Source: Bacteroidota bacterium (lineage in GTDB: Bacteria > Bacteroidota > Bacteroidia > Bacteroidales > UBA12077). Taken from it: a DNA stretch of 63,806 bases. The position numbers and the translations under genes are program-made. This document shows positions 8,221 through 26,548 of the stretch, piece by piece (the stretch's first letter is position 1; every line of letters starts with the position of its first letter). The stretch lies in contig JAYEKP010000088.1 of the NCBI GenBank assembly GCA_034661075.1, positions 1 to 63,806 of the forward strand. The letters run 5' to 3'. Below the pieces are notes generated by a model, which worked only from the letters and a program-made list of their open reading frames with translations, was not told where the DNA came from and searched no databases.

Positions 8221-8222
8221 AT

Positions 8223-8717
8223 ATGAAAATCAAAAACTTCCTTGCATTATTTCTCATCTTAATGGTTGTTTGGGTATTAGTAAACAACTCCTTTTCCGGG
8301 AAAATTATTATTATAGGATTTATACTTTCAGCATTTATTGCATTTTTTTTCGGAACAAATTTACGGATTTTCGATGAGCTTAAATTTACGCCAACAGCGG
8401 TAGGGTACACTTTAATTTATCTTTTTGTATTTTTAATCGAATTAATCAAATCAAACCTCGATGTTGCCCGCCGGGTACTTACTCCCTCATTACCCATTAA
8501 TCCGGGAATTGTAAAAACCAAAACAGTATTAAAATCAAAAATGGGGCGTATGATTTTAGCTAATTCAATTACGCTTACCCCCGGAACACTTACCGTTGAT
8601 ATAGATGGCGATACTTTATATATACACTGGATTGATGTATGTTGCGACGATATTGACAAAGCAACACAAACCATTATTAAAAAATTTGAAAAACATTTAG
8701 TCAAAATATATGATTAA
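8223..8717 (+). CDS. mrpE: Mrp/Mnh-type cation:proton antiporter subunit E (MbxA/MbhA-like)
   Basis: 164 aa. MnhE-type sequence (ANSITLTPGTLTVD). First gene of the operon. Its stop overlaps the next start by 8 nt. Confidence 0.88.
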   Translation: MKIKNFLALFLILMVVWVLVNNSFSGKIIIIGFILSAFIAFFFGTNLRIFDELKFTPTAVGYTLIYLFVFLIELIKSNLDVARRVLTPSLPINPGIVKTKTVLKSKMGRMILANSITLTPGTLTVDIDGDTLYIHWIDVCCDDIDKATQTIIKKFEKHLVKIYD

Positions 8718-8970: not shown

Positions 8971-8972
8971 TT

Positions 8973-10273: not shown

Positions 10274-10644
10274 TGGAAAACTTAAATATAGAAACCGTAA
10301 CATTAATTACTGGAATAGTCCTTTTACTCATAGGTATATGGGGCTTACTTACCCAAAAAAATCTGATAAAAATGGTGATTGGGTTTGCTTTATTCGATAC
10401 CGGGATACATATTATAATGGTAAGTATCGGATATGTTAAAAATCGCACCGCTCCAATACTCGACCAGGCAGTAAAAACAAACGAAGCAGCAGAAAAAATT
10501 GTAGACCCTGTTCCACAGGCACTCGTTCTTACTGCTATTGTCATCGGGCTGGGAATTACAGCATTAATGCTTGCCTATGTTTTAAAAATGTATCAGAAAA
10601 AGAAATCTTTAGAAATCAATAATTATAACGATTTAAAATGGTAA
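10273..10644 (+). CDS. MnhC/NuoK-like membrane subunit (MbhG-like)
   Basis: 123 aa, 3 TM helices, NuoK/MnhC-like. The start shares 1 nt with the upstream stop (TAATG). Confidence 0.82.
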   Translation: MENLNIETVTLITGIVLLLIGIWGLLTQKNLIKMVIGFALFDTGIHIIMVSIGYVKNRTAPILDQAVKTNEAAEKIVDPVPQALVLTAIVIGLGITALMLAYVLKMYQKKKSLEINNYNDLKW

Positions 10645-13600
10645 GACCTTTATATATTATTGCTATTGCATTAGGAACAGCTTTTTCGTTGGGATTTTTT
10701 AAAAAGGCCAATCGAAATATTCCTTATGCATTCATGTTTTTGGCCATGGCTTTCATGGCATTTATTTCGGGCCAGTGGCTTTATGCTTTTTTAGCCAATC
10801 AGCAAGAAGCGATTCAAATTTTTACAGCAGGTTTTCAACCCCCATTTTCTATTAGCTTGCAAATGGGATTGCACGAAGCGGTTTTTCTGAGTTTGATTAA
10901 TGGAATTGGAGTATTATCTGCAATCTATTTATACGAACAATTCCGGGATAAAGGGGTGCAAATGATGATGGTTTTTATTTTGCTGTTTATGGGATTAAAC
11001 GTAATCATCATGACCCGCGATATTTTTAACCTGTTTGTTTTTCTCGAAATCTCAACCATTGCCCTTATTGGATTAATTTTATTAGAGAAAAAAGAGCATG
11101 CGATGAGTTCGGGATTTAAGTATCTGATTGCATCAGGAATAATAAGCGGGATATTGCTCATCGGAATTATTGCCATCTATTATTACAACGGCACATTATT
11201 CATGAATGACATTATTAGCTCTAACCCGCTTCTTCTAAAGGGTGGTTCAGTAGCTATTTTTCTTACCTTAATAGCAATCGTATTAGAATTAAAACCATTC
11301 CCGGCCAATGGATGGGCTTTAGATGTTTATGAAAGTGCACACCCGGGAGTTGGAGCCATTTTATCTGCCGCAATGGGCACGGCAATGCTATTTGTATTGT
11401 ATAAAATAACTCCCTTCATTGCTGATCCATGGTTTAATGTAATTGCTACCATTGGAATCATCACGTTTATTGGATCAAACCTCTTAGGAATTCAGCAAGA
11501 TAATGCCCAGCGCTTGTTAGGCTACTCTTCCGTAGGGCAGTTAGGATTAATTATGCTTGTTATCGGATTATCACCGTATCTTGGGGATAATTATCTATTT
11601 ATAGGGTTCACCCTTTTAATTAGCCACTTCCTGGCAAAAGCAGGTTTATTTTGGATAGCCGGTATTATCAAACAAAAAAAATTAAAAGGATGGTCTGTGC
11701 TTCGAAAAAAACCACTTTTAATGGTATTGTTTGGTACATTTATTTTTGCATTAATTGGGTTTCCTCCATTCCCATCATTTATGGGAAAATGGGAATTAAT
11801 TATGCAATTATCCCTATCAGGACAACATATATGGATGTTTTTGATTTTAATTGGTTCTTTGTTTGAATCAATATATCTTATAAGATGGTTTAGTGTGTCC
11901 CTTAAAACTGATAATACGGGGTTAAAAACTTTCAAAATTAAGCTTCATTCGATTCTGCCTCCTGCAATTTTTGGAATTGCAATTTATATATTTGGGTATA
12001 TTGCTGGAACATATCTAGATGCAGCAAAAGCTATCAATTATATCCCATTATTATTCATTATTTTTATAGCTTTAATTGATTTCTTACCTGCATGGGTGAA
12101 AAATATTATTTCAATATTTGGAGTTATTTTATATATAATATTTATTTATCCTACAGTAGAAGGTGATTTATTGAGACAAATTTTCCTTGGAATATTTTTA
12201 GGTGGTGCAGTTATAACATTATTTTCTGGATTTTATTATAAGGGTAAACGAGTGGGGTTTTATCCAATGGCATTAGCTATGTTTGCTGGTTTGGCAATGC
12301 TTATTACTGCTACTAATCTGTTTGAGATACTTTATGGTTGGGAATTAATGACAATTGGCTCATATTTTTTACTCATTAGAGGTAAAAAATCACAACCCCA
12401 CGGTTATAGCTATATGATGTTTTCAATTGGAGGTTCTTATGCTATAATGTTTGGATTTGCATTAGCGTTCACTAGTGCTGGAAATTTAGGATTAATTGCA
12501 TTAACTGGCATTAATGTCCTTCCAACTTTAGCATATTCTTTAATTTTATTAGGTTTCATGACAAAAACAGCCTCTTTCGGAGTGCATATATGGTTACCTG
12601 GAGCCCATGGAGAAGCTGTTGCAGATATTCATTTTATGGCATCCGCAATTTTACTTAAAGCCGGTGTGTTTGGAATTATTTTAGTGTTATTCGGAATGGG
12701 TTCTGAAGCAACTTATGCTAAAAATATATTATTAGCTCTTGGTTGGATTGGAGCCATTTCAGCTTTAATTGGAAATATGGCAGCAACATTTCAGGAAAGT
12801 GCAAAACGATTGCTTGCTTGGTCAAGTATTGGACAATTAGGATATATTATTTTTGGTCTTGCCACAATGTCGTATTTAGGTTGGATAGCTGGATTATTTT
12901 ATACCGTAACTCACTTTTTATATAAAGGTGTTTTATTTTTAATTATAGGAGGCATTGCTCTCAAATTAGGAACTCCTCTAATGTACAAAATGGGTGGGCT
13001 AATTAAAAAAATGCCATTTTCTTTTATTGCTGTATTAATTGCGATTATAACTTTGGCTGGAGTACCTCCCCTAGTTGGTTTTGCAGGTAAATGGCTGTTT
13101 TATAATACAATTATTAGCGAAGGTTTTTATTTTCAAGGAGTTGTTGTATTGTTTTCTGGAATAGTTGCATTCCTTTACCTTTTTAGATTAATACATACCA
13201 TTTTTTTAGGCCAGCTTAAAGATGAACATAGATATGTAAAAGAAATATCTCCATGGTTGTTAATTCCTGTATACTTGCTTTTAATAGGTATAATGATAAT
13301 ATCGGCAAGACCGGAAATTATTTTAAAACCTTTAGGAAATTATTTAATTGCCTATTTCCCAAATGGGGCAATTACTTGGAATGGAACAATGGCTAGTACA
13401 GGATTAGGATACTGGAATGGATATTGGGTAATGATAATCATCGGTGTAATGTTTGTATTTGTTCTTGGATGGTTACTTTACACCAATGCCAAAGCACAAA
13501 AAGTAAAACAATTTAACATGGTATACAGTGGCGAAAGGCCATTTACTCCGGAAACAACACATATTGCTCACAATATGTATGCCGGATACAGTAAAGCTTT

Positions 13601-13763
13601 AGGATTTATTGTGGAGCCATATATTACAAGATTCTGGAATAATATGTCTGATGCATTAGTACATTTAGGCGGGCTGATTAAAAGGATATATAATGGCAAT
13701 GGACAAACCTATGCCTTTTACATTATTGCCTATATTGTAATTACATTTTTTCTTGTTTTTTAA
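10638..13763 (+). CDS. Fused double NuoL/M/N (MrpD)-type antiporter-like subunit (MbxH-H'-like fusion)
   Basis: 1041 aa, all membrane. There are two successive proton-conducting-membrane-transporter-like halves. The first contains GYSSVGQLG, and the second contains WLPGAHGEA and WSSIGQLGY. Confidence 0.85.
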   Translation: MVRPLYIIAIALGTAFSLGFFKKANRNIPYAFMFLAMAFMAFISGQWLYAFLANQQEAIQIFTAGFQPPFSISLQMGLHEAVFLSLINGIGVLSAIYLYEQFRDKGVQMMMVFILLFMGLNVIIMTRDIFNLFVFLEISTIALIGLILLEKKEHAMSSGFKYLIASGIISGILLIGIIAIYYYNGTLFMNDIISSNPLLLKGGSVAIFLTLIAIVLELKPFPANGWALDVYESAHPGVGAILSAAMGTAMLFVLYKITPFIADPWFNVIATIGIITFIGSNLLGIQQDNAQRLLGYSSVGQLGLIMLVIGLSPYLGDNYLFIGFTLLISHFLAKAGLFWIAGIIKQKKLKGWSVLRKKPLLMVLFGTFIFALIGFPPFPSFMGKWELIMQLSLSGQHIWMFLILIGSLFESIYLIRWFSVSLKTDNTGLKTFKIKLHSILPPAIFGIAIYIFGYIAGTYLDAAKAINYIPLLFIIFIALIDFLPAWVKNIISIFGVILYIIFIYPTVEGDLLRQIFLGIFLGGAVITLFSGFYYKGKRVGFYPMALAMFAGLAMLITATNLFEILYGWELMTIGSYFLLIRGKKSQPHGYSYMMFSIGGSYAIMFGFALAFTSAGNLGLIALTGINVLPTLAYSLILLGFMTKTASFGVHIWLPGAHGEAVADIHFMASAILLKAGVFGIILVLFGMGSEATYAKNILLALGWIGAISALIGNMAATFQESAKRLLAWSSIGQLGYIIFGLATMSYLGWIAGLFYTVTHFLYKGVLFLIIGGIALKLGTPLMYKMGGLIKKMPFSFIAVLIAIITLAGVPPLVGFAGKWLFYNTIISEGFYFQGVVVLFSGIVAFLYLFRLIHTIFLGQLKDEHRYVKEISPWLLIPVYLLLIGIMIISARPEIILKPLGNYLIAYFPNGAITWNGTMASTGLGYWNGYWVMIIIGVMFVFVLGWLLYTNAKAQKVKQFNMVYSGERPFTPETTHIAHNMYAGYSKALGFIVEPYITRFWNNMSDALVHLGGLIKRIYNGNGQTYAFYIIAYIVITFFLVF

Positions 13764-13781
13764 TTTAAGATTACCATAGCT

Positions 13782-14690
13782 ATGAACGATATTATAGTCA
13801 AACTTTTATGGACATTATTAGGTTTATTCATTGTGCTGAATTGGGGATTGTTAATGGGTGCAACCATGCGAAAAATTGTAGCACGCGTAGCACATAGATA
13901 TGGAATCCCTTTTTATCAACCCTGGCTCGACCTGATTAAATTGTATTCTAACCGTTCATCGATTAGTCATGGTGTCATGTTTTACTTAGGCCCTGTTTTC
14001 AGGCTTGGTGGCGGATTAGGAATTTTCCTTTTTTTACCGCTCATCTATGGTTCTGAGCATTTTAGTAATTTCTCATGGGCCGGTGATTTAGTATTGATTT
14101 TATACTTCCAGTTTTTTGGGATGTTAGGCATGGCCTTAGGTGCAGGCGAAGGGGGGCACCCAAATTCTGTCATTGGAATTACCAGGGGATTAGGACAGTT
14201 TACCACGGTTGAGCTACCATTAACCCTGGCAGTAATATCTATTGCACTCCAATATAATACTCTTTCAATCTCAGAAATAGTAGCAGCACAACAAGGTGGA
14301 TTTCAAAACTGGACCTTAGTTACCAATCCTATTGCCACAGCAGCAGCTATGCTTTCATTACTTGGATTATTCAGACACGCACCTTTTAACTTAGTTATGG
14401 CACCGAATGAAGTTCCTATTGGGCCACCAACCGAGTATCACTCCGCCTTTTTAGGTGTTCTTAGAACCAATGGTGCAATTTTACATGTAGTTGAAGCGGC
14501 GTTATTTATGAATTTGTTTTTTGGGGGAGCAACCCATTGGGTAGAATTTATTGTAAAAACATTCCTGATTTATTTCTGGTCTGTTTTTGTTGGTGTTGTT
14601 TCACCACGTTTCAGAATAGAACAATCGGTAACCTGGTTCTTAAAAATACCTTTAGCGATAGGTATTTTGGCTGTAATTCTTTACATCTAA
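13782..14690 (+). CDS. NuoH/HycD-like membrane subunit (MbxM-like)
   Basis: 302-aa polytopic protein, complex I subunit-1 family-like. Placed before the NuoB-like gene. Confidence 0.8.
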   Translation: MNDIIVKLLWTLLGLFIVLNWGLLMGATMRKIVARVAHRYGIPFYQPWLDLIKLYSNRSSISHGVMFYLGPVFRLGGGLGIFLFLPLIYGSEHFSNFSWAGDLVLILYFQFFGMLGMALGAGEGGHPNSVIGITRGLGQFTTVELPLTLAVISIALQYNTLSISEIVAAQQGGFQNWTLVTNPIATAAAMLSLLGLFRHAPFNLVMAPNEVPIGPPTEYHSAFLGVLRTNGAILHVVEAALFMNLFFGGATHWVEFIVKTFLIYFWSVFVGVVSPRFRIEQSVTWFLKIPLAIGILAVILYI

Positions 14691-14706
14691 TTAAAAATCA
14701 TTTAGC

Positions 14707-15390
14707 ATGTCAGATAATACTAAAAATATAGAAGAAAAAAAGGATAAATTTCTCGCTGAAGAAAACAAAAAAAGAATAGTAACCGGCCCGGATGGGGTAC
14801 AATTTGAAGTAGACCCTTTACAGGATTATTTTTGCGATCAGCGTCCTGTTGCAAAGGATCCCAAAAATAAAGTTATTGAAAAATTTTTAAATTGGGCTCG
14901 GGCAGAATCTTTATGGGTTTTGGGCTTTGGAACCGGCTGTGGGAGTATTGAAATCCCTCCACTACTAACTCCAAGGTTTGATGCTTTTAGATATGGTGTT
15001 CAAATGAGGCCTACTCCCAGACAATCATCGGTACTTATAATTTCCGGATATTTAGCGGTAAAAACATTAAAAAGAGCGATCCGCTCTTACGAGCAAATGC
15101 AAAATCCGAAATATGTACTTGCCTTAGGCAGCTGTACCATTAACGGAGGAATGTACTATGATAGTTATAATACCATTAACCGTTTAGATTATTATTTGCC
15201 GGTAGATGTATATGTGGCCGGTTGTATGCCACGTCCGGAAGCACTATTAGCCGGATTTAATAAACTAAAAGAACGAATAAAAGCCGGAAAAGCTGAAGGA
15301 GCCAACGATTATGCCAACAAATTTGACTGGTACAAAGCCAATCAAAAAAAAATTATTAAAGATTGGAACATGCCTGATTATAATTGGTAA
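14707..15390 (+). CDS. NuoB / hydrogenase small-subunit-like protein (MbxJ-like) with only three cluster cysteines
   Basis: 227 aa. NuoB-like blocks are SLWVLGFGTGCGSIE (canonical FGLACCxxE), PRQSSVLIISG, LGSCTINGGMY and VAGCMPRPE. Only Cys78, Cys143 and Cys173 are present. Confidence 0.85.
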   Translation: MSDNTKNIEEKKDKFLAEENKKRIVTGPDGVQFEVDPLQDYFCDQRPVAKDPKNKVIEKFLNWARAESLWVLGFGTGCGSIEIPPLLTPRFDAFRYGVQMRPTPRQSSVLIISGYLAVKTLKRAIRSYEQMQNPKYVLALGSCTINGGMYYDSYNTINRLDYYLPVDVYVAGCMPRPEALLAGFNKLKERIKAGKAEGANDYANKFDWYKANQKKIIKDWNMPDYNW

Positions 15391-15417
15391 AAACCGAACA
15401 AAGTAAAATATTTAAAA

Positions 15418-15951
15418 ATGAAGGAAATCATTCAAGATATAAAAAAGAGATTCAATTGTACTGATGAGATTGAGCAATCAAAAACGCAGAGTTATATTAC
15501 AGTTCAAAAAGAGTTAGCCATTGCTTTAATTACACATCTAAGAGATATTAAAGGTTTTACACACCTGGTTCTTTTAACGGCTGTAGACTGGATTGAAAAC
15601 AACCAGTTCCAGCTAACCTACATGCTAAATAATCCAACAAAAAAAATTGACTTAGGCGTGCGGGTTTTTATCGACCGCGAAACAGCAACCATGGACAGCG
15701 CACATCATTTATGGGAGCAGATGGCAACCTATCAGCGTGAGTTAAAAGAGATGTTTGGTATTGATTTCCCGGGTAGTCCAAGACTTAACGAACCCTTTAT
15801 ATTAGAAGGATGGGATAACATCCCTCCATACCGTAGAGATTTCGACACCTTAAAATATGCACAGGAAACTTTCTTCCCGCGCGAAGGAAGAGAGACCAAT
15901 GATCCTGCTGAATTTATGAAGAAAAAGATGTATCCCGATGAAGAAAAATAA
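15418..15951 (+). CDS. NuoC-like 30-kDa subunit (MbxK-like)
   Basis: 177 aa. NuoC-type core (LVLLTAVDW..., FGIDFPGSPRL...LEGWD). Overlaps the next gene by 14 nt. Confidence 0.82.
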   Translation: MKEIIQDIKKRFNCTDEIEQSKTQSYITVQKELAIALITHLRDIKGFTHLVLLTAVDWIENNQFQLTYMLNNPTKKIDLGVRVFIDRETATMDSAHHLWEQMATYQRELKEMFGIDFPGSPRLNEPFILEGWDNIPPYRRDFDTLKYAQETFFPREGRETNDPAEFMKKKMYPDEEK

Positions 15952-17128
15952 TAAAATATGGCCAGGCGACCGGTCTAAATACCCGGCTTTTGATGAGAAT
16001 GGAAACCCTATCATCGACTTAAAGTCGCATAAATTAACCAAATTGTGGCATGGGCCTAACCATCCCGGAGTTACAGGAAATATGTCGCTTGAGCTTACCC
16101 TAAGCGGAGATGAAGTAGTGGAAGCGAAAACGCATGTTGGATACTTACACCGTGGATTTGAAAAACTAATGGAACGTCGGTTATATATTCAATGTTTCCC
16201 TACATGTATCAGGATGTGTGTTCCTGAAGCGGACTCAAATGAATATGTTTTGGCAGCATCTATTGAAGATTTAGGGGGAATAGAAATTCCTGAAGCTGCC
16301 TCATGGATGAGAACACTCGTTCTTGAGATGGCCAGATTACAAGTTTTATTAAGAACAGTTCCGGGACAGGCTGCAACTCTTTCATTAGGCATGGGGGCTC
16401 AATGGGGAATGTATTTAAGAGACCTCATACTAGACCGCTTCGAAGAACTCACCGGAGGTCGTATTTATCATATGTTTATTATTCCCGGAGGGGTTCGTGG
16501 ACTATTACCTGCCGGATTCAAAAAACGAATGGAAGAGAATTTAGTAGAGATTGAAGAATTTATCGATAAAATTGAGGATTTAATATTTACCAATGCCATA
16601 TTTAAAAAACGAACTATTGGAATAGGTTACATTGATCCTTCATGGGTAGATAAATATGGCATTGTCGGCCCAAATGCAAGAGCTGCAGGGTATAACCGCG
16701 ATGTTCGAAAAGACTACCCCTATTTAAAATATAATGAACTGGATTTTGAACCTTATGTTGGCAAAGATTCTGATGTATTCACCCGTTCACAAGTAAGAAA
16801 ACATGATTTAATTCAAACGGTTGATTTAATCCGACAAATTCTGGCAAAAGTTCCTGAAAAAGGAGACATTCGGGCAAAAACGCCTAATGTACTACATTGG
16901 CAGCTTCCCAAAGGAGAAACCTATCAAAGAAGTGAATCTTCAAGAGGGGAATATGGTTTATATGTAGTTTCCGATGGTTCCAAATACCCAAGGAGGGTAA
17001 ATCTTAGAGGACCCAGTTATACTCATGCTGTAGCTTTACTCGAAAAATTATTAATCAATGCAAACATTGCTGATGTTCATTCTATCATGGTATCATTACA
17101 AACTTGTCCGCCTGAAATTGAACGATAA
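15938..17128 (+). CDS. NuoD / [NiFe]-hydrogenase large-subunit-like protein (MbxL-like) lacking two of four NiFe cysteine ligands
   Basis: 396 aa. Contains GPNHPG and HVGYLHRGFEKLME blocks. The N-terminal ligand motif reads R-M-C94-V-P-E97 instead of R-x-C-G-x-C. The C-terminus reads Q-T-C390-P-P-E393-I-E-R-stop instead of D-P-C-x-x-C-x-x-R. Confidence 0.85.
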   Translation: MKKNNKIWPGDRSKYPAFDENGNPIIDLKSHKLTKLWHGPNHPGVTGNMSLELTLSGDEVVEAKTHVGYLHRGFEKLMERRLYIQCFPTCIRMCVPEADSNEYVLAASIEDLGGIEIPEAASWMRTLVLEMARLQVLLRTVPGQAATLSLGMGAQWGMYLRDLILDRFEELTGGRIYHMFIIPGGVRGLLPAGFKKRMEENLVEIEEFIDKIEDLIFTNAIFKKRTIGIGYIDPSWVDKYGIVGPNARAAGYNRDVRKDYPYLKYNELDFEPYVGKDSDVFTRSQVRKHDLIQTVDLIRQILAKVPEKGDIRAKTPNVLHWQLPKGETYQRSESSRGEYGLYVVSDGSKYPRRVNLRGPSYTHAVALLEKLLINANIADVHSIMVSLQTCPPEIER

Positions 17129-17145
17129 CTTGTGGTGATTTGTGT

Positions 17146-17568
17146 ATTTGGTTATATGATTATTTGAAAAATTGATATAAATATGAGACTTTATTCTTTT
17201 GAAAAACTTGAAGTATGGAAGTTATCACGAAAATTGAATAAAAATATTTATCAAATTAGTGAGAAATTTCCTGATAGTGAGAAATTTGGATTAACATCTC
17301 AAATAAGAAGAGCTTCAGTTTCAATTTCTTCAAATATTGCAGAGGGAAACTCAAGAAAATCAGGAATTGAACAAGCTAGATTCACAGAATTTGCATTTGG
17401 AAGTTTAATGGAAGTGTTGAATCAACTAATACTTGCTAATGATCTGGAGTTTATTAATGAACAAATTTTAAATAATGAAAGATTATTAATAGAAGAGATA
17501 GGTAATAAGATAAATAAATTGAAAGAAGTTCAATTGAGAAAAGGGCACAATTCTTCATATAACCAAAT
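17146..17568. repeat. 14-bp perfect inverted repeat bracketing the four-helix-bundle gene (arms 17146-17159 ATTTGGTTATATGA and 17555-17568 TCATATAACCAAAT)
   Basis: Read directly. The left arm is 24 nt upstream of the start codon. The right arm lies inside the last codons of the ORF. Confidence 0.8.
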
Positions 17569-17578
17569 CAACAAATAA
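17183..17578 (+). CDS. Four-helix-bundle protein (23S rRNA intervening-sequence protein / Avd-like family)
   Basis: 131 aa. YSFEKLEVWKLSRKL...FGLTSQIRRASVSISSNIAEGNSR...FAFGSLMEV is the family signature as I remember it. It interrupts the L-N gene junction of the operon. Confidence 0.85.
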   Translation: MRLYSFEKLEVWKLSRKLNKNIYQISEKFPDSEKFGLTSQIRRASVSISSNIAEGNSRKSGIEQARFTEFAFGSLMEVLNQLILANDLEFINEQILNNERLLIEEIGNKINKLKEVQLRKGHNSSYNQINK

Positions 17579-17594
17579 TCTAATAAACAATAAA

Positions 17595-19391
17595 ATGAAA
17601 TTAAAAGACATATTAACACCTTTTACCGCCTGGAAAAATGTTTTTGAAGATCCCAAAACGGTAAAAGACCCTTTAAATGACCGGCCAGGAGCCGAAAGAT
17701 ATAGAGGCTTTCATAAAAATGATATCGAAACCTGTATTGGGTGTGGTACGTGTGAGGAAATCTGTGAAAATCAAGCCATTGATTTGGTTCCTGTAGAAGG
17801 CATCGAAACAAAAGACGGGGACAGTGGATTACGGCCCAGAATTGATTACGGAAGATGTTGCTGGTGTGCCCTATGTGTGGATGTTTGTACCACAGGGTCG
17901 CTAACTCTAAGTAACGAATATACCTGGGTTTCTGAAGATCCTGAAGACTTTAGATATACCCCTGGGGTTGATAAAAAAACCTGGGACAAAAATGAAGCAG
18001 GATGGAAAAAACCTGAACATGGGTATGAATTATATCCTCTTGAGCGGGTGAAAATCGAGCATCTGAAACCGGAAGAGAGGGATCAATCATTTATAGAGAT
18101 AATAAAAGGTTACTCCAAAGAAGAAGCACAAAAAGAAGCCGACCGTTGTGTGGAATGTGGGATATGTGTTGCAACCTGCCCTGCACATATGGGAATCCCT
18201 GAATATATTAAAGCCGTTCGGGAAGATAATATTGAAGAAGGACTTAGAAAATTGTATGAAACCAACCCCTTACCCGAGATTTGTGGAAGGATATGTACGC
18301 ATAAATGTGAAACGGTTTGTTCTGTCGGGAATCTGGGTGAGCCTCTATCTATCCGATGGCTCAAAAGATATATTGCCGACCAGGTGGATTCTGAAGACTA
18401 TAAACGAATTTTAGGAACCGATGGCATTGAAAATAAAGATAAAAAAATAGCGATTATTGGCTCTGGGCCATCGGGATTATCAGCAGCATACTATCTGGCT
18501 CTCATGGGATATCAGGTTAAAATATTTGAAGCTTATCCACAAGCCGGTGGAATGATGCGTTATGGAATCCCGGAGTATCGATTACCTTACGGCCAGATTG
18601 ACAAAGATATAAATTATATTCTGTCATTAGGTGTTGAAATAAAATACAATACACGAATAGGCAAAGATATAACCCTTGAAAATCTTCAGAAAGAATACGA
18701 CGCAGTATTTTCAGGTACAGGATTGCATTTGGGCAGAAGTACCCGAATACCGGGAACAGACCATGAAAATGTTTATCAGGCAATCGATCTACTGCGAGAT
18801 ATTACTATGGGGAAAGAAGTCCCTGTTGCTGAAAAGATAGTTGTAATTGGAGGGGGAAATGTAGCAATGGATATTACCCGCTCGCTGGCACGTTTACAAA
18901 ATCAGAAGTATGGTAAAGTACATATAACAGCAACCTCGCTTGAATCTGAGGATATTATGCCCGCCGACCGGGAAGAAGTGGTAGAGGCGCGCGAAGAAAA
19001 AGCAACCATTGAACCCGGATGGGGACCGACATCCATCGAGATTGAAAACAATAAAATTAAAGGATTGCATGTGCAGAAATGTACTTCTGTTTTTGATAAA
19101 GATGGCCGCTTCAATCCAAAATTTGATGAATCACAAACAAAATTCTTCGAAGCTGATATGGTGATTGAATCCATAGGACAGGGAATGGATATTGAATACA
19201 TCAGTAAAGATACCCGCGAACAAATGGAGTTTGACCCTCGAGGTAGAATTATTGTTGATAATTATTTCCAGACAGGTGCCAAATGGCTGTTTGTAGGTGG
19301 TGATATTATCCAGGGGCCGGATGTTATCCATGGTATTGCCAACGGACATAAAGCAGCCATAGGAATTGACCGGTTTTTAATGAATAAATAA
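17595..19391 (+). CDS. Fusion protein: NuoI/MbxN-like 2x[4Fe-4S] ferredoxin domain + GltD/NfnB/PreT-like FAD- and NAD(P)H-binding iron-sulfur flavoprotein
   Basis: 598 aa. N-terminal CIGCGTCEEIC and CCWCALCVDVC motifs. GltD-type Fe-S region follows (RCVECGICVATCP...GRICTHKCETVC). FAD fold IAIIGSGPSGLSAAYYL...AGGMMRYGIPEYRLP, and a second dinucleotide fold IVVIGGGNVAMD. Confidence 0.85.
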   Translation: MKLKDILTPFTAWKNVFEDPKTVKDPLNDRPGAERYRGFHKNDIETCIGCGTCEEICENQAIDLVPVEGIETKDGDSGLRPRIDYGRCCWCALCVDVCTTGSLTLSNEYTWVSEDPEDFRYTPGVDKKTWDKNEAGWKKPEHGYELYPLERVKIEHLKPEERDQSFIEIIKGYSKEEAQKEADRCVECGICVATCPAHMGIPEYIKAVREDNIEEGLRKLYETNPLPEICGRICTHKCETVCSVGNLGEPLSIRWLKRYIADQVDSEDYKRILGTDGIENKDKKIAIIGSGPSGLSAAYYLALMGYQVKIFEAYPQAGGMMRYGIPEYRLPYGQIDKDINYILSLGVEIKYNTRIGKDITLENLQKEYDAVFSGTGLHLGRSTRIPGTDHENVYQAIDLLRDITMGKEVPVAEKIVVIGGGNVAMDITRSLARLQNQKYGKVHITATSLESEDIMPADREEVVEAREEKATIEPGWGPTSIEIENNKIKGLHVQKCTSVFDKDGRFNPKFDESQTKFFEADMVIESIGQGMDIEYISKDTREQMEFDPRGRIIVDNYFQTGAKWLFVGGDIIQGPDVIHGIANGHKAAIGIDRFLMNK

Positions 19392-19408
19392 TTTAAAATT
19401 ATTTTGCT

Positions 19409-20389
19409 ATGATAGATCTTTCGACCGAATACATGGGGTTAAAACTAAAAAACCCAATTATCGCAGCCAGCTCGGGACTAACCGACACGGCAGAAAAAGT
19501 AAAAAAACTGGAAGATAGTGGTGTAGGTGCTGTTGTTTTAAAATCATTGTTCGAAGAACAAATCCGTATGAAAGTTGATTCTTTAGGTATGAACAACATG
19601 TTTAATACCTATTCGGATAACGAAAATTACATAGCCTTTTACACCAAACAAAATACTGTAAACGAATATTTAACGCTTATCAAAGACTCCAAAGCAAAAG
19701 TTAATATTCCGGTTATTGCCAGCATTAATTGCTACTCTATGGGCGAATGGGTTGAGTTTACCCAAAAAATTGAAGAAGCAGGAGCTGACGGTATTGAATT
19801 AAATATGTTTATATTACCCGGAGATATTGAACAAAAAGGAGAAGAAATTGAACAAAAATATTTTGACATTATCCGGAAGGTTCAGGAACATACATCGCTA
19901 CCTGTTGCTGTGAAATTAAGCTACTATTTTTCGGGAATGGGCGAAATTTTAAAGCGTATCTCTCAAACCGGAATAAAAGGAATGGTATTATTTAATCGTT
20001 TTTATAATCCTGATGTTGATTTGGAAAATGAAAAAATAAAACCTTCGAGAATTTTTAGTGTCCCTGAAGAAAACTCCATGTGTATCCGTTGGATTGGTTT
20101 ACTATCGGGTAAAGTAACTTGCGACATGGCTGCTTCAACGGGTATCGATGATGGATATGGCGCATTAAAAAATATTCTGGTCGGCGCCAAAGCCGTTCAG
20201 GTAGCATCTGCTTTATATCAAAATAAATTAGAACATATTAACCAAATGCTAACCCAGATGGAATCGTGGATGCAGAATAAAGGGTACAATTCTATCCAGG
20301 AAATTATTGGAAAATTAAATTACTCCAAACACAATGTTGAATTGTACGAAAGAGCCCAGTTTATGAAATATTACTCGAGTTACGAATAA
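19409..20389 (+). CDS. Dihydroorotate dehydrogenase-like (PyrD/PreA-fold) FMN TIM-barrel protein lacking the class-1 catalytic Cys
   Basis: 326 aa. N-terminus LSTEYMGLKLKNPIIAASSGLT and GADGIELN are DHOD-like. Where class-1 DHOD/DPD has LN(L)SCPN, this protein has LNMFILPG. No C-terminal ferredoxin domain. Confidence 0.75.
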   Translation: MIDLSTEYMGLKLKNPIIAASSGLTDTAEKVKKLEDSGVGAVVLKSLFEEQIRMKVDSLGMNNMFNTYSDNENYIAFYTKQNTVNEYLTLIKDSKAKVNIPVIASINCYSMGEWVEFTQKIEEAGADGIELNMFILPGDIEQKGEEIEQKYFDIIRKVQEHTSLPVAVKLSYYFSGMGEILKRISQTGIKGMVLFNRFYNPDVDLENEKIKPSRIFSVPEENSMCIRWIGLLSGKVTCDMAASTGIDDGYGALKNILVGAKAVQVASALYQNKLEHINQMLTQMESWMQNKGYNSIQEIIGKLNYSKHNVELYERAQFMKYYSSYE

Positions 20390-20402
20390 CGAAATAAGGA
20401 GA

Positions 20403-20432
20403 ATGACCGGTATTTTGCCGGTCATTTTTTTA
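20403..20432 (+). terminator. Rho-independent terminator ending the 8223-20389 operon
   Basis: ATGACCGG-tattttg-CCGGTCAT followed by T7, 14 nt after the stop codon. Confidence 0.8.
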
Positions 20433-20512
20433 TCATACAAATATAATTATATAGATATATTGATTTATATAATATTTTTCCCTATTTTTACGTAAACTAA
20501 AATTTTACACCT

Positions 20513-20989
20513 ATGCTAGCCAAAGAGATTTTAGAAAAAAAGAAAGAACAAGGGAATCATAAAGTGAGTACAATAACAGAAAACACTTCTGCTTTTGAAG
20601 CCATAGCTCAATTGGACAAATTAAAAATTGGTTCGTTATTAGTCATCAACAATAAAAATGAAATCTTAGGAATTGTTTCGGAGCGTGATATTTTATATAA
20701 ATGCTATAACTCAGGTATCCCTCTAAAAGAAAGAACCATCAAAGATTTAATGACTCCTAAGGAAGATCTTATCATTGGCAAATTGGAAGATGATACGCAC
20801 TATTTGCGAAATGTAATGACTCAAAAACGAATCCGGCATATTCCCATTATTGATAATTCAGGCCAATTAGCAGGTATTATTTCTTCAGGCGATATCCTGA
20901 AAAATGAACTGAAAGTAACCGAAAAAGAAGCCCGATTATTACGCGAACATATCAGGAATCCTTTCGGAATACATTTGTATGATGAATAA
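20513..20989 (+). CDS. CBS-pair domain protein
   Basis: 158 aa. Two CBS-like repeats (GIVSERDIL..., HIPIIDNSGQLAGIISSGDILK). Confidence 0.8.
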   Translation: MLAKEILEKKKEQGNHKVSTITENTSAFEAIAQLDKLKIGSLLVINNKNEILGIVSERDILYKCYNSGIPLKERTIKDLMTPKEDLIIGKLEDDTHYLRNVMTQKRIRHIPIIDNSGQLAGIISSGDILKNELKVTEKEARLLREHIRNPFGIHLYDE

Positions 20990-21003
20990 ACAAAACGATT
21001 AAA

Positions 21004-21267
21004 TTATATATCAAGTTTTCCGGGTTTAATCTTACTATCCGGATACTCAACCTCCTGATCGGGATGATCGGCAAAAAATTGCAAATCTTTAACAAACCCG
21101 TCAATATCCTGATCAGAAAATCCCTTCTCTTTTGCAGCCTCTTCGAGTGTACCCCAAATAGGTTCTCCACAGGCAATACATTTTATCCCTTCGTTCATTA
21201 AATATTTTACCGCTTGTGGAACTTCTTCCACCAGTTCATCAATGGTTATGTCTTTTGTAATTTTCAT
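21004..21267 (-). CDS. DUF1858-type small redox protein (hybrid-cluster-protein-associated disulfide domain family)
   Basis: 87 aa. ITKDITIDELVEEVPQAVKYLMNEGIKCIACGEPIWGTLEEAAKEKG matches the DUF1858 pattern with CxxC. Confidence 0.7.
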   Translation of the reverse strand: MKITKDITIDELVEEVPQAVKYLMNEGIKCIACGEPIWGTLEEAAKEKGFSDQDIDGFVKDLQFFADHPDQEVEYPDSKIKPGKLDI

Positions 21268-21424
21268 ATGTTTATTTTTTGTTTTTTTAAGGTCATATGG
21301 AACCGCATAATTAAAATAATCATTATCGTGTGTGTATTTTTTGATTAAAAAAATTCATATTCGTTTCATATGATCTCTTTTTTATTCCTAACCTATAACA
21401 TTAAAAAATGTTCACAAAAGAAAA

Positions 21425-22246
21425 TTAATGAATAATATATTTATTTCCCTTCGCATGACAAGACGGACTTGTTTCGGTTTCCGGGAAATATTCACCAATT
21501 AAATGATATAAGTCAATATCGTACTCTCTCATCTCTTCGCGGGTATTTACTGCATTATGTTTACCATCCGGTGCAGGAACTTCTGCATTAACATCAAACC
21601 AGTTTTGAACTCCTTCGGCCCAATACTCCCAGATATTGGTTGCGGCATAGGTATTATTATATTTACCTTGAGAAATTGCATTATCTAACAAATCCTGTAA
21701 AATAGCATTAAAATCTTCCCGGACAGGTAAAATTCCTACCGCATGAATCGTATGTGCAAATTCATGAATAAGAATATCCTCGGCATGATATTTATCGATT
21801 TGATAACAAAGAAGATTCTCTTCTGCACAAGAGGTTAAAGGCAACTCTACAGTACCTCCTAATCCTCTGGCCCTTACATCCCAGTTAAGACTTGTATCAT
21901 TTTCCAGATGAGCATGTTCCGGGATATCTGTCGTTCCCTCATATCGGGCCATTATGGCAACTCTCGTATCTACTTTAACCATTTCTTGCAATACAACTTT
22001 TGGCAACCCATTGGTCATAAACAAAATAATTTCATAAGCTTTAGACAATGCCTCATCAGGCACTTTACGTGATGAAATAATATGAATACCGTTAGCATTC
22101 ACATATTTTTTATAAAAAGGGTCTAATTCCAAACTTACGGGAGGTGAGATAATGGATACGTTTGACTTACTTTTTATTTGTGCAATCCCAGACAATGACA
22201 AAAATAAAATACTCGTAATTGTAAACAGAACTATAATTGATCTCAT
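21425..22246 (-). CDS. Secreted putative zinc metallopeptidase (HExxH)
   Basis: 273 aa. N-terminal signal peptide. HEFAHTIH zinc-binding-type motif. Family not recognised. Confidence 0.5.
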   Translation of the reverse strand: MRSIIVLFTITSILFLSLSGIAQIKSKSNVSIISPPVSLELDPFYKKYVNANGIHIISSRKVPDEALSKAYEIILFMTNGLPKVVLQEMVKVDTRVAIMARYEGTTDIPEHAHLENDTSLNWDVRARGLGGTVELPLTSCAEENLLCYQIDKYHAEDILIHEFAHTIHAVGILPVREDFNAILQDLLDNAISQGKYNNTYAATNIWEYWAEGVQNWFDVNAEVPAPDGKHNAVNTREEMREYDIDLYHLIGEYFPETETSPSCHAKGNKYIIH

Positions 22247-23779: not shown

Positions 23780-24376
23780 ATAGCTTTTAAATTACCAAAT
23801 TTATCATACAGTTACGATGCATTAGAACCATATATTGATGCACGAACCATGGAGATACACCATACCAAACATCATGGTGGATATACCAATAAGTTAAACG
23901 ATGCAATAAAAGGAACTCCGATTGAAAATCAATCGATTGAAGAGATATTAAAAAAAGTTTCAAAACATCCAACGGCTGTTAGAAATAATGGCGGCGGGTA
24001 TTATAACCACAAACTCTTTTGGGACATTATGTCGCCCGAAGGAGGTGGTGAACCTTCAGGAAAATTGATGGATACCATAAAAAAAGACTTTGGCTCTTTC
24101 GATAAATTCAAAGAAGAGTTTAATCAGGCTGCGGCCACCCGTTTTGGCTCGGGTTGGGCATGGCTGATGAACCAGAACGGGAAATTAGTAATTGCCTCTA
24201 CTCCAAACCAGGATAATCCGTTAATGGATATCAGTGAAGTAAAAGGAACCCCCATATTAGGACTTGATGTATGGGAACATGCATATTACTTAAAATACCA
24301 AAACAGAAGGCCCGAATATATTGATGCTTTCTGGAGTATAGTTGACTGGAATAAAGTAAAAAAGCGTTTTGTTTAG
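23780..24376 (+). CDS. sodA: Mn-type superoxide dismutase with ATA at the Met1 position (non-canonical start or start-loss pseudogene)
   Basis: The frame is open from 23768. The translation (I)[31 protein letters not shown]... is a full SOD N-terminus. There is no ATG/GTG/TTG between the upstream TAA (23765) and the internal Met at 23849. [11 protein letters not shown] and [18 protein letters not shown] motifs are present. Confidence 0.7.
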
Positions 24377-24436
24377 TTGTTTTACCAACTGCCCTTAGGC
24401 AGTGCAGATTTGTAAATGTAATTTAGGTTTAGTAAG

Positions 24437-24460
24437 GCCGGGATTTTTCCCGGCCTTTTT
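24437..24460 (+). terminator. Rho-independent terminator after the first SOD gene
   Basis: GGCCGGG-attttt-CCCGGCC followed by TTTTT. Confidence 0.75.
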
Positions 24461-24530
24461 GTTGTAATTCCCTTTTTTATTCATTAAATTTATTTAACAA
24501 TTTGATGTCAAACCTAAAAAAATAATCATT

Positions 24531-25106
24531 ATGGCTTTCGAATTACCTAATTTACCCTATGCATACGACGCACTAGAACCAGAAATATCCAAACAAACGC
24601 TCGAGTTCCATCACGATAAGCATCACGCTGCTTATGTAAACAAGTTAAATAATTTAATTAAAGGAACCGAGTTTGAGAATGCAGATATTGTAGATATCAT
24701 TATGAAATCGGATGGTGGTATTTTTAACAATGCTGCACAGACCTGGAATCATACCTTTTACTTTGATCAATTTGGCAAAGACAAAAGCAATGAACCCAAA
24801 GGACAGCTGAAAGATGCAATAAATGAGACATATGGTTCATTTAATGAATTCAAAGAAAAATTCGCAGATGCAGCAAAAACCTTATTTGGATCGGGTTGGG
24901 CATGGTTAGTTAAAAAACCGAACGGCAGCCTGGATATTGTCCAAACACCCAATGCGGCGAATCCGTTAACCGAGGGGTTAATCCCTATTTTAACCTGCGA
25001 TGTATGGGAACATGCTTACTATTTAGATTATCAGAATAAGCGTCCCGATTACATCGAGAGTTTCTGGAAAATTCTCGATTGGGATATCATCTCCGGCCGC
25101 TATTAA
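24531..25106 (+). CDS. sodB: Fe-type superoxide dismutase
   Basis: 191 aa. MAFELPNLPYAYDALEP, AAQTWNHTFYF (Fe-type signature as I recall) and [18 protein letters not shown]. Confidence 0.9.
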   Translation: MAFELPNLPYAYDALEPEISKQTLEFHHDKHHAAYVNKLNNLIKGTEFENADIVDIIMKSDGGIFNNAAQTWNHTFYFDQFGKDKSNEPKGQLKDAINETYGSFNEFKEKFADAAKTLFGSGWAWLVKKPNGSLDIVQTPNAANPLTEGLIPILTCDVWEHAYYLDYQNKRPDYIESFWKILDWDIISGRY

Positions 25107-25159
25107 ACATATTTAAAACCATTTTAAATTACCTATTCAGGTAATACAATACTTTTTTT

Positions 25160-25195
25160 GTTCCCGGAAATTTTTATCTTCGGGAACATTTTTTA
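25160..25195 (+). terminator. Rho-independent terminator after sodB
   Basis: GTTCCCG...CGGGAAC stem followed by ATTTTTT. Confidence 0.65.
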
Positions 25196-25222
25196 TGATC
25201 AAAACTTACTAAATTTAATATT

Positions 25223-25798
25223 ATGAGCTCATTGAAAGGAACACGTACAGAACAAAACCTGTTAAAATCATTTGCCGGAGAATCGCAGGCAAAAAACCGA
25301 TATGAATTTTTTGCTAAGGTTGCCAAAAAAGAAGGCTACGAACAAATAGCCGAATTCTTTTTAGAAACAGCCGCACAAGAACAACAACATGCCAAAACAT
25401 TTTTCAAATTGCTTGAAGGAGGAATGGTTGAAATCACGGCTTCGTATCCGGCAGGAGTTATTGGAACTACCACAGAAAATTTAAAAGCGGCAGCCGAAGG
25501 TGAAAACGAAGAATGGTCTGAGCTTTATCCTGAGTTTGCAAAGATTGCAGAAGAAGAAGGATTCAAAAAAATTGCTACTACTTTCAAGCTTATTGCAAAA
25601 GTTGAAGCCGAGCATGAAAAGCGGTACCTTAAACTACTTGAAAATATTGAACAAGGTAAAGTTTTTGAACGCGAAGAAAAAGTGCGTTGGGTATGCCGCA
25701 AGTGCGGACATGTACACGAAAGTAAAAAAGCACTTAAAAATTGCCCGGTTTGTGGCCATCCGGAAGCTTATTTTGAGATAGAAAAAACAAACTATTAA
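25223..25798 (+). CDS. rbr: Rubrerythrin
   Basis: 191 aa. Ferritin-like diiron domain (TEQNLLKSFAGESQAKNRY...EQQHA...EAEHEKRY). C-terminal rubredoxin-type CxxC...CxxC (CRKCGH...CPVCGH). Confidence 0.92.
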   Translation: MSSLKGTRTEQNLLKSFAGESQAKNRYEFFAKVAKKEGYEQIAEFFLETAAQEQQHAKTFFKLLEGGMVEITASYPAGVIGTTTENLKAAAEGENEEWSELYPEFAKIAEEEGFKKIATTFKLIAKVEAEHEKRYLKLLENIEQGKVFEREEKVRWVCRKCGHVHESKKALKNCPVCGHPEAYFEIEKTNY

Positions 25799-25856
25799 TA
25801 AGAGTTTAAACTTATATCTAAGAGGATGTCCTAAAAGTGTTTATTTCAATATACAC

Positions 25857-25916
25857 TTCGACAGGCTCAGTGTGACATCTTAGTTGTTAGCTCATTGTCA
25901 TATTGAGCTTGTCGAA
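25857..25916 (+). repeat. 21-bp-arm hairpin of the TTCGACARGCTCA...TGACA repeat type
   Basis: Arms are 25857-25877 and 25896-25916. The three non-Watson-Crick positions are all G.U pairs when the plus strand is folded (C.A on the minus strand). Confidence 0.7.
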
Positions 25917-25969
25917 ATATGAATAACTAATGAACACTCTCTTTTATCTTACGCAAAAAATTATGCATT

Positions 25970-26548
25970 ATGATTAGAGAACTCATAACCAAAAACCGCA
26001 GTTATCGCAGATATTACCAAAATCACAAACTCTCCATCGAAGAATTAAAGGATTTGGTAGAGTTAGCGCGCTTATCTGCATCAGGAAGAGATTTACAACC
26101 CTTAAAATATTATTTATCTGCCGATGAAGAAACCAACCAAAAAGTTTTTTCCACCTTAGCCTGGGCCGGATATTTAAAAGACTGGGATGGCCCGGAAGAA
26201 GGAGAACGGCCAACAGGCTATATCATTATTCTAAGCGATACACGGCTTACCACTAACTATTTCTGTGATCAAGGGATTGCGGCACAAAGCATGCTACTGG
26301 GCGCAGTGGAAAAAGCATTAGGAGGATGTATTTTTGCTTCTATCCAACGAGAAAAATTAAAACAACTGCTGAATATCGAAGAATATTTTGAAGTTTTATT
26401 AGTTATTGCCCTGGGCAAACCAAAAAAAGAAGTTGTAGTTGAAGAGGTAAGAAATGGAGATATAAAATATTACCGCGACGAAAATCAGGTGCATCATGTT
26501 CCTAAACGTAGTTTGGATGAATTAATTATTTCCGGTGTAATTGATTAA
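25970..26548 (+). CDS. Nitroreductase-family protein
   Basis: 192 aa. N-terminus RSYRRY...LKDLVELARLSASGRDLQPLKY and GIAAQSMLLGA are typical of the family. Confidence 0.85.
   Translation: MIRELITKNRSYRRYYQNHKLSIEELKDLVELARLSASGRDLQPLKYYLSADEETNQKVFSTLAWAGYLKDWDGPEEGERPTGYIIILSDTRLTTNYFCDQGIAAQSMLLGAVEKALGGCIFASIQREKLKQLLNIEEYFEVLLVIALGKPKKEVVVEEVRNGDIKYYRDENQVHHVPKRSLDELIISGVID

Follow-up and report, generated by a model that had tools for sequence, protein, structure and literature searches.

A bacterial MBS-type gene cluster with a fused NfnB-like flavoprotein subunit and a cysteine-less DHOD-like neighbour: a candidate NAD(P)H-fed sulfane-sulfur reductase

Contig JAYEKP010000088.1 of the Bacteroidota assembly GCA_034661075.1, taken over its positions 1 to 63,806 and called the window throughout (63,806 nucleotides), contains a single cluster of fifteen genes that run in one direction (8223-20989, plus strand). 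The cluster unites the complete gene set of an MBS/Mbx-type complex, namely Mrp-like small subunits, two antiporter-like subunits, and NuoH-, NuoB-, NuoC-, NuoD- and NuoI-like subunits. The NuoI-like subunit is fused to an Fe-S flavoprotein, and 17 nucleotides behind this fusion gene starts a gene for a protein of the dihydroorotate dehydrogenase (DHOD) type. A gene for a CBS-pair protein closes the cluster. Here we argue from homology that the cluster encodes a bacterial relative of the sulfane-sulfur reductase MBS, which may well be fed by NAD(P)H, and discuss which role the DHOD-like protein could play beside it. The genes of the window were taken from an open-reading-frame list and their domains assigned with Pfam and NCBIfam profiles; the identity of subunits was judged by comparison with all sequences in the PDB.

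The fusion protein comprises 598 residues and four 4-Cys motifs. Its N-terminal domain matches NuoI/FpoI models and holds two CxxCxxCxxxC motifs within residues 47-98 (C47/C50/C53/C57 and C88/C91/C94/C98), and a Fer4_20 domain follows with C185/188/191/195 and C230/234/238/242. Behind it, a Pyr_redox_2 region (residues 284-579) includes the motif IIGSGPSG of an FAD fold and the motif VIGGGNVAMD of an NAD(P)H fold. All 16 of the 16 cysteines are invariant in an alignment of 14 fusion sequences that reaches down to 41% identity. The two NuoI-type motifs seen in the original prediction for this locus, which had been made from the DNA letters, are located at C47-C57 and C88-C98, and everything else that this prediction stated about the sequence itself also proved correct.

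Is such a fusion real? Over nearly its entire length (residues 2-597 against model positions 7-608 of 611) it matches the NCBIfam family NF010590 (PRK13984, 'putative oxidoreductase') with 915.8 bits, which is 30 below the curated cut-off of 946. Among 5.8 billion proteins searched, 7841 homologues reached E<=1e-20, of which the top 120 all measure 593-610 residues. In a library clustered at 50% identity, some twelve representatives show the full-length fusion architecture, and below them the scores drop to generic GltD/NfnB-like levels. In a species scan with one genome per species, at least 594 matches were confirmed by tblastn; 80 of these loci were verified, kept and annotated by phmmer with the window proteins as queries (loci are labelled L in the following). 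The abundance of homologues of about 600 residues, the PRK13984 match and the 80 verified loci rule out an assembly artefact such as a missing stop codon, which the original prediction had named as a possible flaw. The fusion is no new architecture either. Both the protein and its position in mbx-like operons are already known from curated hidden Markov models (PRK13984) and comparative genomics, and gltD-type subunits in place of NuoI in mbx-like operons were noted by Degli Esposti in 2015 (PMC4758237). Fusions in spirochaetes are longer, at about 750 residues, owing to an extra C-terminal extension without a Pfam match at E<=0.001; an ad hoc rubrerythrin-like model flagged one spirochaete-type long fusion only (L057).

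The membrane part can be identified more closely. For every core subunit compared, the best entry is 6U8Y, the MBS of Pyrococcus furiosus: the NuoB-like subunit matches chain J (MbsJ) with 209.6 bits against 134.7 for the next entry, the NuoD-like subunit chain L (MbsL) with 293 bits against 197.5 for Nqo4, and the N-terminal domain of the fusion chain N (MbsN) with 81 bits against 48 for the next. The 1041-residue antiporter-like protein best matches two chains of the same structure, MbsH (chain H, residues 6-236, 149.8 bits) and MbsH' (chain X, residues 531-1035, 180.4 bits). Structural work on MBS has described several hallmarks, which are a proximal [4Fe-4S] cluster held by three cysteines (MbsJ C28, C93 and C123), with MbsJ C25 too distant to bind the cluster and dispensable, vestigial NiFe cysteines at MbsL C85 and C385, and the lack of the quinone ligands H38 and Y87 (PMC7684303). 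In the window, the sequence FGTGCGSIE of the NuoB-like subunit aligns with FCTGCGGIE of MbsJ, so that C25 has become Gly and C28 is retained; the equivalents of C93 (GSCTINGG) and C123 (AGCMPRPE) are present as well, and the proximal cluster is predicted to have three Cys ligands. The NuoD-like subunit keeps C85 (RMCVPE) and C385 (QTCPPE), and carries Thr for H38 and Val for Y87 of Nqo4. Because of the 6U8Y matches and the presence of these three hallmarks, the cluster is, judged by sequence, a bacterial MBS homologue. A quinone-reducing mini complex I is ruled out by the missing H38 and Y87 together with the MBS-type features, and a true hydrogenase by the two NiFe cysteines that are left out of four. 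The pump is indeed an Mrp-type, complex-I-like module, with the correction to the earlier reading that it is not a generic nuo/mrp module but specifically an MBS homologue.

The flavoprotein half (residues 148-598) points to a second well-known family. Its top PDB match is NfnA of NfnABC (9N5U, 269.9 bits), followed by Thermotoga maritima NfnB (4YLF_B, 266.1 bits), NfnII (260.9 bits), Stn (253-260 bits) and the large subunit of P. furiosus NfnI (254.9 bits). GltD reaches 176.1 bits and dihydropyrimidine dehydrogenase (DPD) 113.4 bits. With scores so far above those of GltD and DPD, the flavoprotein half classifies by sequence as an NfnB-type module and not as a GltD- or PreT-type one. The GltD-type unit of the original prediction accordingly keeps its elements, since the Fe-S cysteines, GSGPSG and GGGNVAMD are all present, and changes its affinity to NfnB (255-270 bits) instead of GltD (176 bits); likeness to DPD/PreT is lower still, at 113 bits. 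A Pfam scan for FAD_binding_6, NAD_binding_1 and 2Fe-2S domains found no NfnA (PyrK-like FAD/[2Fe-2S]) partner encoded in the cluster, and NqrF is the sole protein of this kind in the window.

The nucleotide pocket shows a further deviation. The residues YRR, which follow the second Rossmann strand of NfnB, align with ATS (within TATSLE) in the window fusion, so that the Arg-Arg pair is replaced by Thr-Ser. This pair we take to be the pocket for the 2'-phosphate of NADPH. Most fusions among the 80 loci share the T[SAC]LE motif together with an LQxxKYGK insert (residues ~430-455, window ~18885-18960), and a minority clade (L080, L081, L084 and L086) keeps an NfnB-like YRRR. These two pocket types suggest that NADH- and NADPH-using versions of the complex exist. 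From the loss of the Arg-Arg pair we infer that the donor in the clade of the window would be NADH, or that specificity is relaxed.

How constant is the association of fusion and pump? Upstream context could be scored in the 78 loci with DNA upstream of the fusion gene, and in 78 of 78, spread over eight phyla or more, it comes directly after the genes MrpEFG-MbhD-MnhB-MrpC-MrpD(D)-NuoH-B-C-D. The fusion was never found apart from the pump. The MrpE-like gene forms the conserved start of the cluster across the 80 related loci, and the five small membrane subunits behind it keep the same order in every locus. Among the hosts are Bacteroidota, Spirochaetota, Cloacimonadota, Halanaerobiales, Chlorobiota and Neomarinimicrobiota, and alpha-, beta- and gammaproteobacterial sulfur and iron oxidisers such as Thiothrix, Sedimenticola, the Thiodiazotropha/Thiosymbion symbionts and Gallionellaceae. 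The idea of an NAD(P)H-entry module that feeds a membrane pump is supported by the NAD(P)H and FAD folds, the four [4Fe-4S] sites and the presence of the pump in all 78 loci. The gene slot beside the fusion varies: it holds a rubrerythrin-like gene in 26 loci, a DHOD-like gene in 24, a CBS gene in 15 (CBS alone in 9), and is empty in 14.

The DHOD-like protein, 326 residues long, contains a Pfam DHO_dh domain (residues 4-287) and matches the NCBIfam family NF005741 (PRK07565, 'dihydroorotate dehydrogenase-like protein') over residues 1-325 with 413.6 bits at a cut-off of 303. The PreA model reaches only residues 1-198 (model positions 1-203 of 422), and the protein has neither an Fe-S tail nor a nucleotide-binding domain. 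In the decisive loop, ELNLSCPNVPG of Lactococcus lactis DHODA aligns with ELNMFI--LPG, which turns the catalytic Cys130 into Ile135 beside a two-residue deletion. Among 62 aligned family members no conserved Cys or Ser was found in the catalytic loop, which is shorter and hydrophobic throughout; the equivalent site in DPD is C671. The residues of the FMN core, K45, N132, K169 and N196 (Lys43, Asn127, Lys164 and Asn193 in DHOD), are invariant in the same 62 sequences, and the protein is predicted to be an FMN barrel. A helical insertion takes the place of the DHODA N67-loop region, which remains unaligned. The family has invariants of its own (E49, E50, W114, Y151, S217, R227, K254, R315 and Q317) and a conserved tail, YERxQFMKY. 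An AlphaFold model (pLDDT 86.4) resembles the FMN domain of pig DPD and class-1A DHODs with a TM score of ~0.7 at ~20% identity.

These features rule out a canonical DHOD or PreA, given the Cys-less loop, the lacking Fe-S tail and the partial PreA match. Without a catalytic Cys/Ser and with some of the pyrimidine pocket lost, the protein is unlikely to use dihydroorotate or dihydropyrimidines as substrates. On this protein the original prediction was accurate in most respects. The DHOD-fold barrel lies where it was described and gives the DHO_dh match; the loss of the Cys loop is confirmed by both the L. lactis DHODA and the family alignment, with no Cys or Ser retained in a proper alignment; the PreA ferredoxin tail is absent, the PreA model stopping at residue 198; and inactivity towards dihydroorotate and dihydropyrimidines is supported by the missing Cys/Ser and the incomplete pyrimidine pocket. 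The searchable literature gave no functional study of this family and no description of its pairing with an MBS-like complex.

Across genomes the DHOD-like gene appears in two arrangements. Scored over 65 informative loci, it lies immediately 3' of the fusion in 24, all Bacteroidota. In at least four spirochaete genomes it stands immediately before mrpE and is read in the same direction, namely in a Treponema metagenome-assembled genome (MAG), an Alkalispirochaeta MAG, a contig of assembly GCA_001188585.2 and a Leptospira-labelled MAG. Its occurrence in two gene orders and two phyla argues for a functional link with the cluster. We treat the DHOD-like protein as an optional, lineage-specific accessory of the cluster in Bacteroidota and some spirochaetes, one that the base complex does not need. 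What did not survive is its role as a general partner of the fusion, being adjacent in only 24 of 65 loci and standing alone elsewhere. Linkage to mrp/nuo-like genes holds in full for the fusion (78 of 78) and in part for the DHOD-like family, with 4 of 7 members looked up outside Bacteroidota standing alone.

The other genes of the cluster and its surroundings are listed in Table 1. The small-subunit orthologues in L001/L002 bear the domains PF04066, PF03334, PF13244 and PF00420. The homologues of MbsH and MbsH' are joined in one 1041-residue protein in the window and in most Bacteroidota and proteobacterial loci, and are two genes in Halanaerobiales, spirochaetes, the Cloacimonadota locus L045, one Anaerolineales and one Bipolaricaulota locus. 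A 131-residue gene of the 23S rRNA IVP family sits between the NuoD-like and fusion genes, in the same slot as in the close relatives L007, L001/L002 and L014. It precedes the NuoC-like gene in L019, is absent from most other loci and is probably an insertion, not a subunit. In 15 loci of several phyla the CBS gene comes next after the fusion gene or the DHOD-like one, and as last gene it occurs with or without a DHOD-like gene (L010, L018, L028, L030, L031, L041, L085 and L086); its product may regulate the complex by sensing nucleotides. Proteobacteria and others have, behind the fusion gene, one for a rubrerythrin/ferritin-like protein of 146-173 residues (26 loci). The 123-nucleotide gap between the DHOD-like and CBS genes contains a 25-nucleotide hairpin (9-bp stem, 7-nucleotide loop) that the scan called terminator-like on the minus strand only. 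A sigma-70 promoter and terminator scan of 7800-21500, not informative for Bacteroidota, stayed at background level. Upstream of the cluster and divergent from it lies a complete Na+-NQR operon, which fits Na+-based energetics, with a regulator of the Crp/FNR family in between. A few kb downstream of the cluster follow a run of oxidative-stress genes and an aldehyde:ferredoxin oxidoreductase.

Table 1. Positions of the cluster genes, of the fusion domains and of neighbouring features (window coordinates unless a locus label is given).
Feature	Position	Strand	Evidence
MrpE-like membrane subunit, start of the cluster	8223..8717	+	Pfam MNHE, E=5e-42
MrpF-like small membrane subunit	8710-8970	+	orthologues in L001/L002
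MrpG-like small membrane subunit	8973-9344	+	orthologues in L001/L002
MbhD-like small membrane subunit	9337-9582	+	orthologues in L001/L002
MnhB/MbhE-like small membrane subunit	9575-10273	+	Pfam MnhB/MbhE
MrpC/NuoK-like small membrane subunit	10273-10644	+	orthologues in L001/L002
Double antiporter-like protein, 1041 aa (MbsH-like N-terminal and MbsH'-like C-terminal halves)	10638..13763	+	two Proton_antipo_M stretches
NuoH/MbsM-like membrane anchor	13782..14690	+	Pfam NADHdh, E=7.5e-42
NuoB/MbsJ-like subunit, predicted three-Cys proximal [4Fe-4S] site	14707..15390	+	PDB 6U8Y_J
NuoC/MbsK-like subunit	15418..15951	+	Pfam Complex1_30kDa, E=6.6e-25
NuoD/MbsL-like subunit, vestigial NiFe site, without quinone ligands	15938..17128	+	PDB 6U8Y_L
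131-aa four-helix-bundle gene (23S rRNA IVP family)	17183..17578	+	Pfam 23S_rRNA_IVP, E=8.9e-35; TIGR02436
Fusion gene, 598 aa	17595-19391	+	NF010590
Fusion residues 1-125, MbsN/NuoI-like 2x[4Fe-4S] domain	17595..17969	+	6U8Y_N
Fusion residues 164-267, Fer4_20 domain, 2x[4Fe-4S], as in NfnB/GltD/DPD	18084..18395	+	Pfam Fer4_20, E=3.6e-30
Fusion residues 284-598, FAD and NAD(P)H folds, NfnB-like	18444..19391	+	Pyr_redox_2, E=4.2e-26
DHOD/DPD-fold protein, predicted FMN barrel, without catalytic Cys/Ser (PRK07565 family), 326 aa	19409..20389	+	Pfam DHO_dh, NF005741
CBS-pair protein, recurrent at the cluster end	20513..20989	+	Pfam CBS, E=3e-19
Na+-NQR operon nqrA-F	1048-6992	-	
Crp/FNR-family regulator	7278-8003	-	
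Hairpin in the DHOD-like/CBS gap	20402-20426		
Two Fe/Mn superoxide dismutases, rubrerythrin with rubredoxin domain, nitroreductase	23849-26548	+	
Aldehyde:ferredoxin oxidoreductase	29728-31884	-	
Rubrerythrin-like gene after the fusion, examples	L050:11800-12321, L064:11794-12288, L074:4517-5038, L044:3510-3950, L040:8134-8589		

What could the complex do? We regard an NAD(P)H-fed, ion-translocating sulfane-sulfur reductase as slightly favoured by the sequence evidence. The MBS signature, the NfnB affinity and the replacement of the Arg-Arg pair in most members sharpen the hypothesis towards this likely function. In NfnAB, two [4Fe-4S] clusters of NfnB connect the FAD with the site where ferredoxin binds. 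The MbsN-type subunit, on which ferredoxin docks and delivers its electrons in Pyrococcus, is here fused to an NfnB-type flavoprotein, which would remove the diffusible ferredoxin from the path. Electrons would then pass from NAD(P)H to the FAD, through the two Fer4_20 and the two MbsN-type [4Fe-4S] clusters, and on to the three-Cys proximal cluster of the MbsJ-like subunit. A sulfane-sulfur compound, for example polysulfide, might be reduced in the pocket formed by the MbsJ-, MbsL- and MbsM-like subunits, which would drive the movement of H+ or Na+ through MbsH/H' and the Mrp-type subunits. Sulfur oxidisers might operate the complex in reverse. What the data show directly are homology, cofactor motifs and gene neighbourhoods; the electron path, its substrate, its direction and its nucleotide preference are inferred, as is any physical contact with the DHOD-like protein. 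The DHOD-like protein would add a [4Fe-4S]-to-FMN transfer as in DPD/PreA, serving a soluble substrate; whether it exchanges electrons with the Fe-S chain of the fusion we consider evenly balanced. With standard potentials near -320 mV (NADH) and near -260 to -270 mV (polysulfide), the reaction yields roughly 10-12 kJ per two electrons. Of the same order is the 12 kJ/mol/2e- cited for MBH, an ion pump (PMC8165549). In T. maritima, S0 induces mbxA 4.4-fold (PMC9431562), and the 'Mrp-Mbx complex' of Endoriftia is, like the genes for sulfur-globule proteins, a first neighbour of the reductive tricarboxylic acid (rTCA) cycle in co-expression (PMC11636981).

A number of points weigh against this proposal. 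Reduction of polysulfide with NAD(P)H releases little energy, the substrate of the MbsJ/L pocket is assigned by homology only, and the suggested preference for NADH derives from a single feature, the Arg-Arg loss, with YRRR kept in the minority clade. The AlphaFold model of the fusion falls below a pLDDT of 50 at residues 1-64 and 85-116, within the Fe-S domains, so the geometry between domains cannot be derived from it. As for the DHOD-like step, 41 of the 65 informative clusters have no adjacent DHOD-like gene, and among seven neighbourhoods of family members looked up outside Bacteroidota, four show a gene standing alone in unrelated surroundings. Relatives at 77% identity (L001-L006) carry a second DHOD-like paralogue with 63% identity to that of the window (e.g. 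L002:14400-15383), located 3.4 kb downstream after a MacB/FtsX gene and outside the operon; the window itself has no second copy, ORF 36233-37216 being unrelated. Moreover, none of 656 alignment columns discriminates fusions with a DHOD-like neighbour from those without (24 versus 14 sequences). Class-1A DHODs, which function alone with fumarate, provide a precedent. The stand-alone members, the distant paralogue, the many clusters without the gene and the absence of co-varying residues would all suit an independent ping-pong FMN oxidoreductase that shares the neighbourhood without exchanging electrons with the fusion, an explanation we hold to be possible at clearly less than even. Against it stand the tight 17-nucleotide spacing conserved across 24 species and the second adjacency at the 5' end of the operon in the spirochaete genomes. 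Further, no domain of the DHOD-like protein itself could bind a reductant, and the combination of an NfnB/GltD-like protein with a DHOD fold is a proven partnership in DPD/PreTA.

Two other explanations concern the complex as a whole. Older literature assumed a flow from ferredoxin to NAD(P)+ (PMC4758237; Mesotoga preprint), which also counts against our proposal and would make the complex a classical, Rnf-like 'Mbx', an ion-translocating ferredoxin:NAD(P)+ oxidoreductase whose NfnB-like module reduces NAD(P)+ without any sulfur substrate. The aldehyde:ferredoxin oxidoreductase in the window brings ferredoxin into play, and the Endoriftia complex neighbours the ferredoxin-dependent rTCA cycle in co-expression, which could fit reverse operation (PMC11636981). 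We consider it unlikely: the ferredoxin-docking MbsN-like subunit is itself fused, with no other ferredoxin-binding subunit encoded in the cluster, and the superfamily couples pumping to the NuoB/D/H pocket, so that the MBS-style pocket kept here would have no role. In addition, archaeal Mbx has been re-assigned from a ferredoxin:NADP+ oxidoreductase to a sulfane reductase (PMC9431562, PMC7684303). The original prediction had proposed flavin-based bifurcation or confurcation, where the NfnB-like FAD would split or merge NAD(P)H electrons between the low-potential Fe-S chain to the pump and a high-potential partner. The FAD of NfnB/NfnL is the bifurcating site of NfnAB, and the flavoprotein half is most like NfnB/NfnL. 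Moreover, the slot beside the fusion nearly always holds a redox or regulatory gene, and spirochaete fusions possess an extra C-terminal domain. Even so, the cluster encodes no NfnA/PyrK-like [2Fe-2S]/FAD partner, no residue of the fusion tracks the presence of the DHOD-like protein, and the NfnB-like domains of Stn and NfnABC serve as plain NADPH entry points and are not known to be the bifurcating sites. No test made in this analysis speaks for bifurcation, which we consider improbable. The same low probability applies to the notion that its partner is an exchangeable accessory, either the DHOD-like FMN (Bacteroidota, spirochaetes) or, in other lineages, a rubrerythrin-like protein: the slot is empty in 14 loci and its content is not conserved, and an Fe-S cluster that could connect FAD and FMN is missing from the DHOD-like protein.

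Complexes of the MBS/Mbx-like kind are widespread among bacteria and occur in anaerobic Bacteroidota, spirochaetes and Cloacimonadota, and in free-living and symbiotic sulfur-oxidising proteobacteria. If the sulfane-sulfur reductase proposal is true, a pump driven by NAD(P)H, or reducing NAD(P)+, would couple the pool of pyridine nucleotides directly with zero-valent sulfur and Na+/H+ gradients. This would matter for sulfur reduction by fermenters, for the way in which sulfur oxidisers draw on stored sulfur, and for how the NADH-input module of complex I evolved. For the orphan family PRK07565, the recurrent link in two phyla and two gene orders is a first hint at a function. Were bifurcation to prove true instead, this would be the first membrane-integral, ion-translocating respiratory complex with flavin-based electron bifurcation, and the widespread orphan DHOD-like family would have a new catalytic role.

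Several known systems resemble parts of this assembly. DPD and PreT-PreA likewise pair a GltD-fold Fe-S flavoprotein with a DHOD-fold FMN barrel. In the window, the barrel lacks the C-terminal 2x[4Fe-4S] domain and the catalytic Cys, the pair is tied to a membrane pump, and the likeness of the flavoprotein to DPD is distant (113 bits). Class-1A and class-1B DHODs (L. lactis PyrDa and PyrDb) have the TIM barrel and the Lys/Asn of the FMN core in common with the DHOD-like protein, in which a shorter hydrophobic loop replaces the Cys130 loop and a helical insertion the N67 loop. NfnB/NfnL (4YLF, 5JCA) share the two-cluster Fer4_20 domain and the FAD and NAD(P)H folds with the fusion, to which an MbsN domain has been added at the N-terminus and which has neither the NfnA partner nor the Arg-Arg pair. 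In DsrL, the NAD(P)H:acceptor oxidoreductase of DsrAB, an NfnB-like module that has gained a ferredoxin domain likewise couples NAD(P)H to a sulfur-metabolising Fe-S enzyme (PMC7596348), a likeness drawn from its description; unlike the fusion, DsrL is soluble, works with another partner and is not joined to a complex-I-type subunit.

The closest relatives are the MBS-type complexes themselves. The MBS of P. furiosus (formerly Mbx, 6U8Y) has the same subunit set, with Mrp-like small subunits, MbsH and MbsH', and equivalents of MbsM, J, K, L and N. In contrast to its free-standing MbsN, the one in the window is fused to ~470 residues of NfnB-like Fe-S flavoprotein, which makes NAD(P)H and not free ferredoxin the likely donor. 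Further differences are the joined MbsH/MbsH', the Gly at the position of MbsJ C25, the bacterial and mesophilic setting and the extra DHOD-like and CBS genes. These two add-ons are undescribed as far as the searchable literature shows, which yielded no description of MBS-like clusters that end in DHOD-like and CBS genes. The bacterial 'mbx-like' operons of Thermotoga and proteobacteria share both the architecture and the fusion family PRK13984/NF010590 with the window (PMC4758237). They often close with a rubrerythrin-like gene, as do the 26 loci above; the Bacteroidota version, in contrast, closes with DHOD-like and CBS genes.

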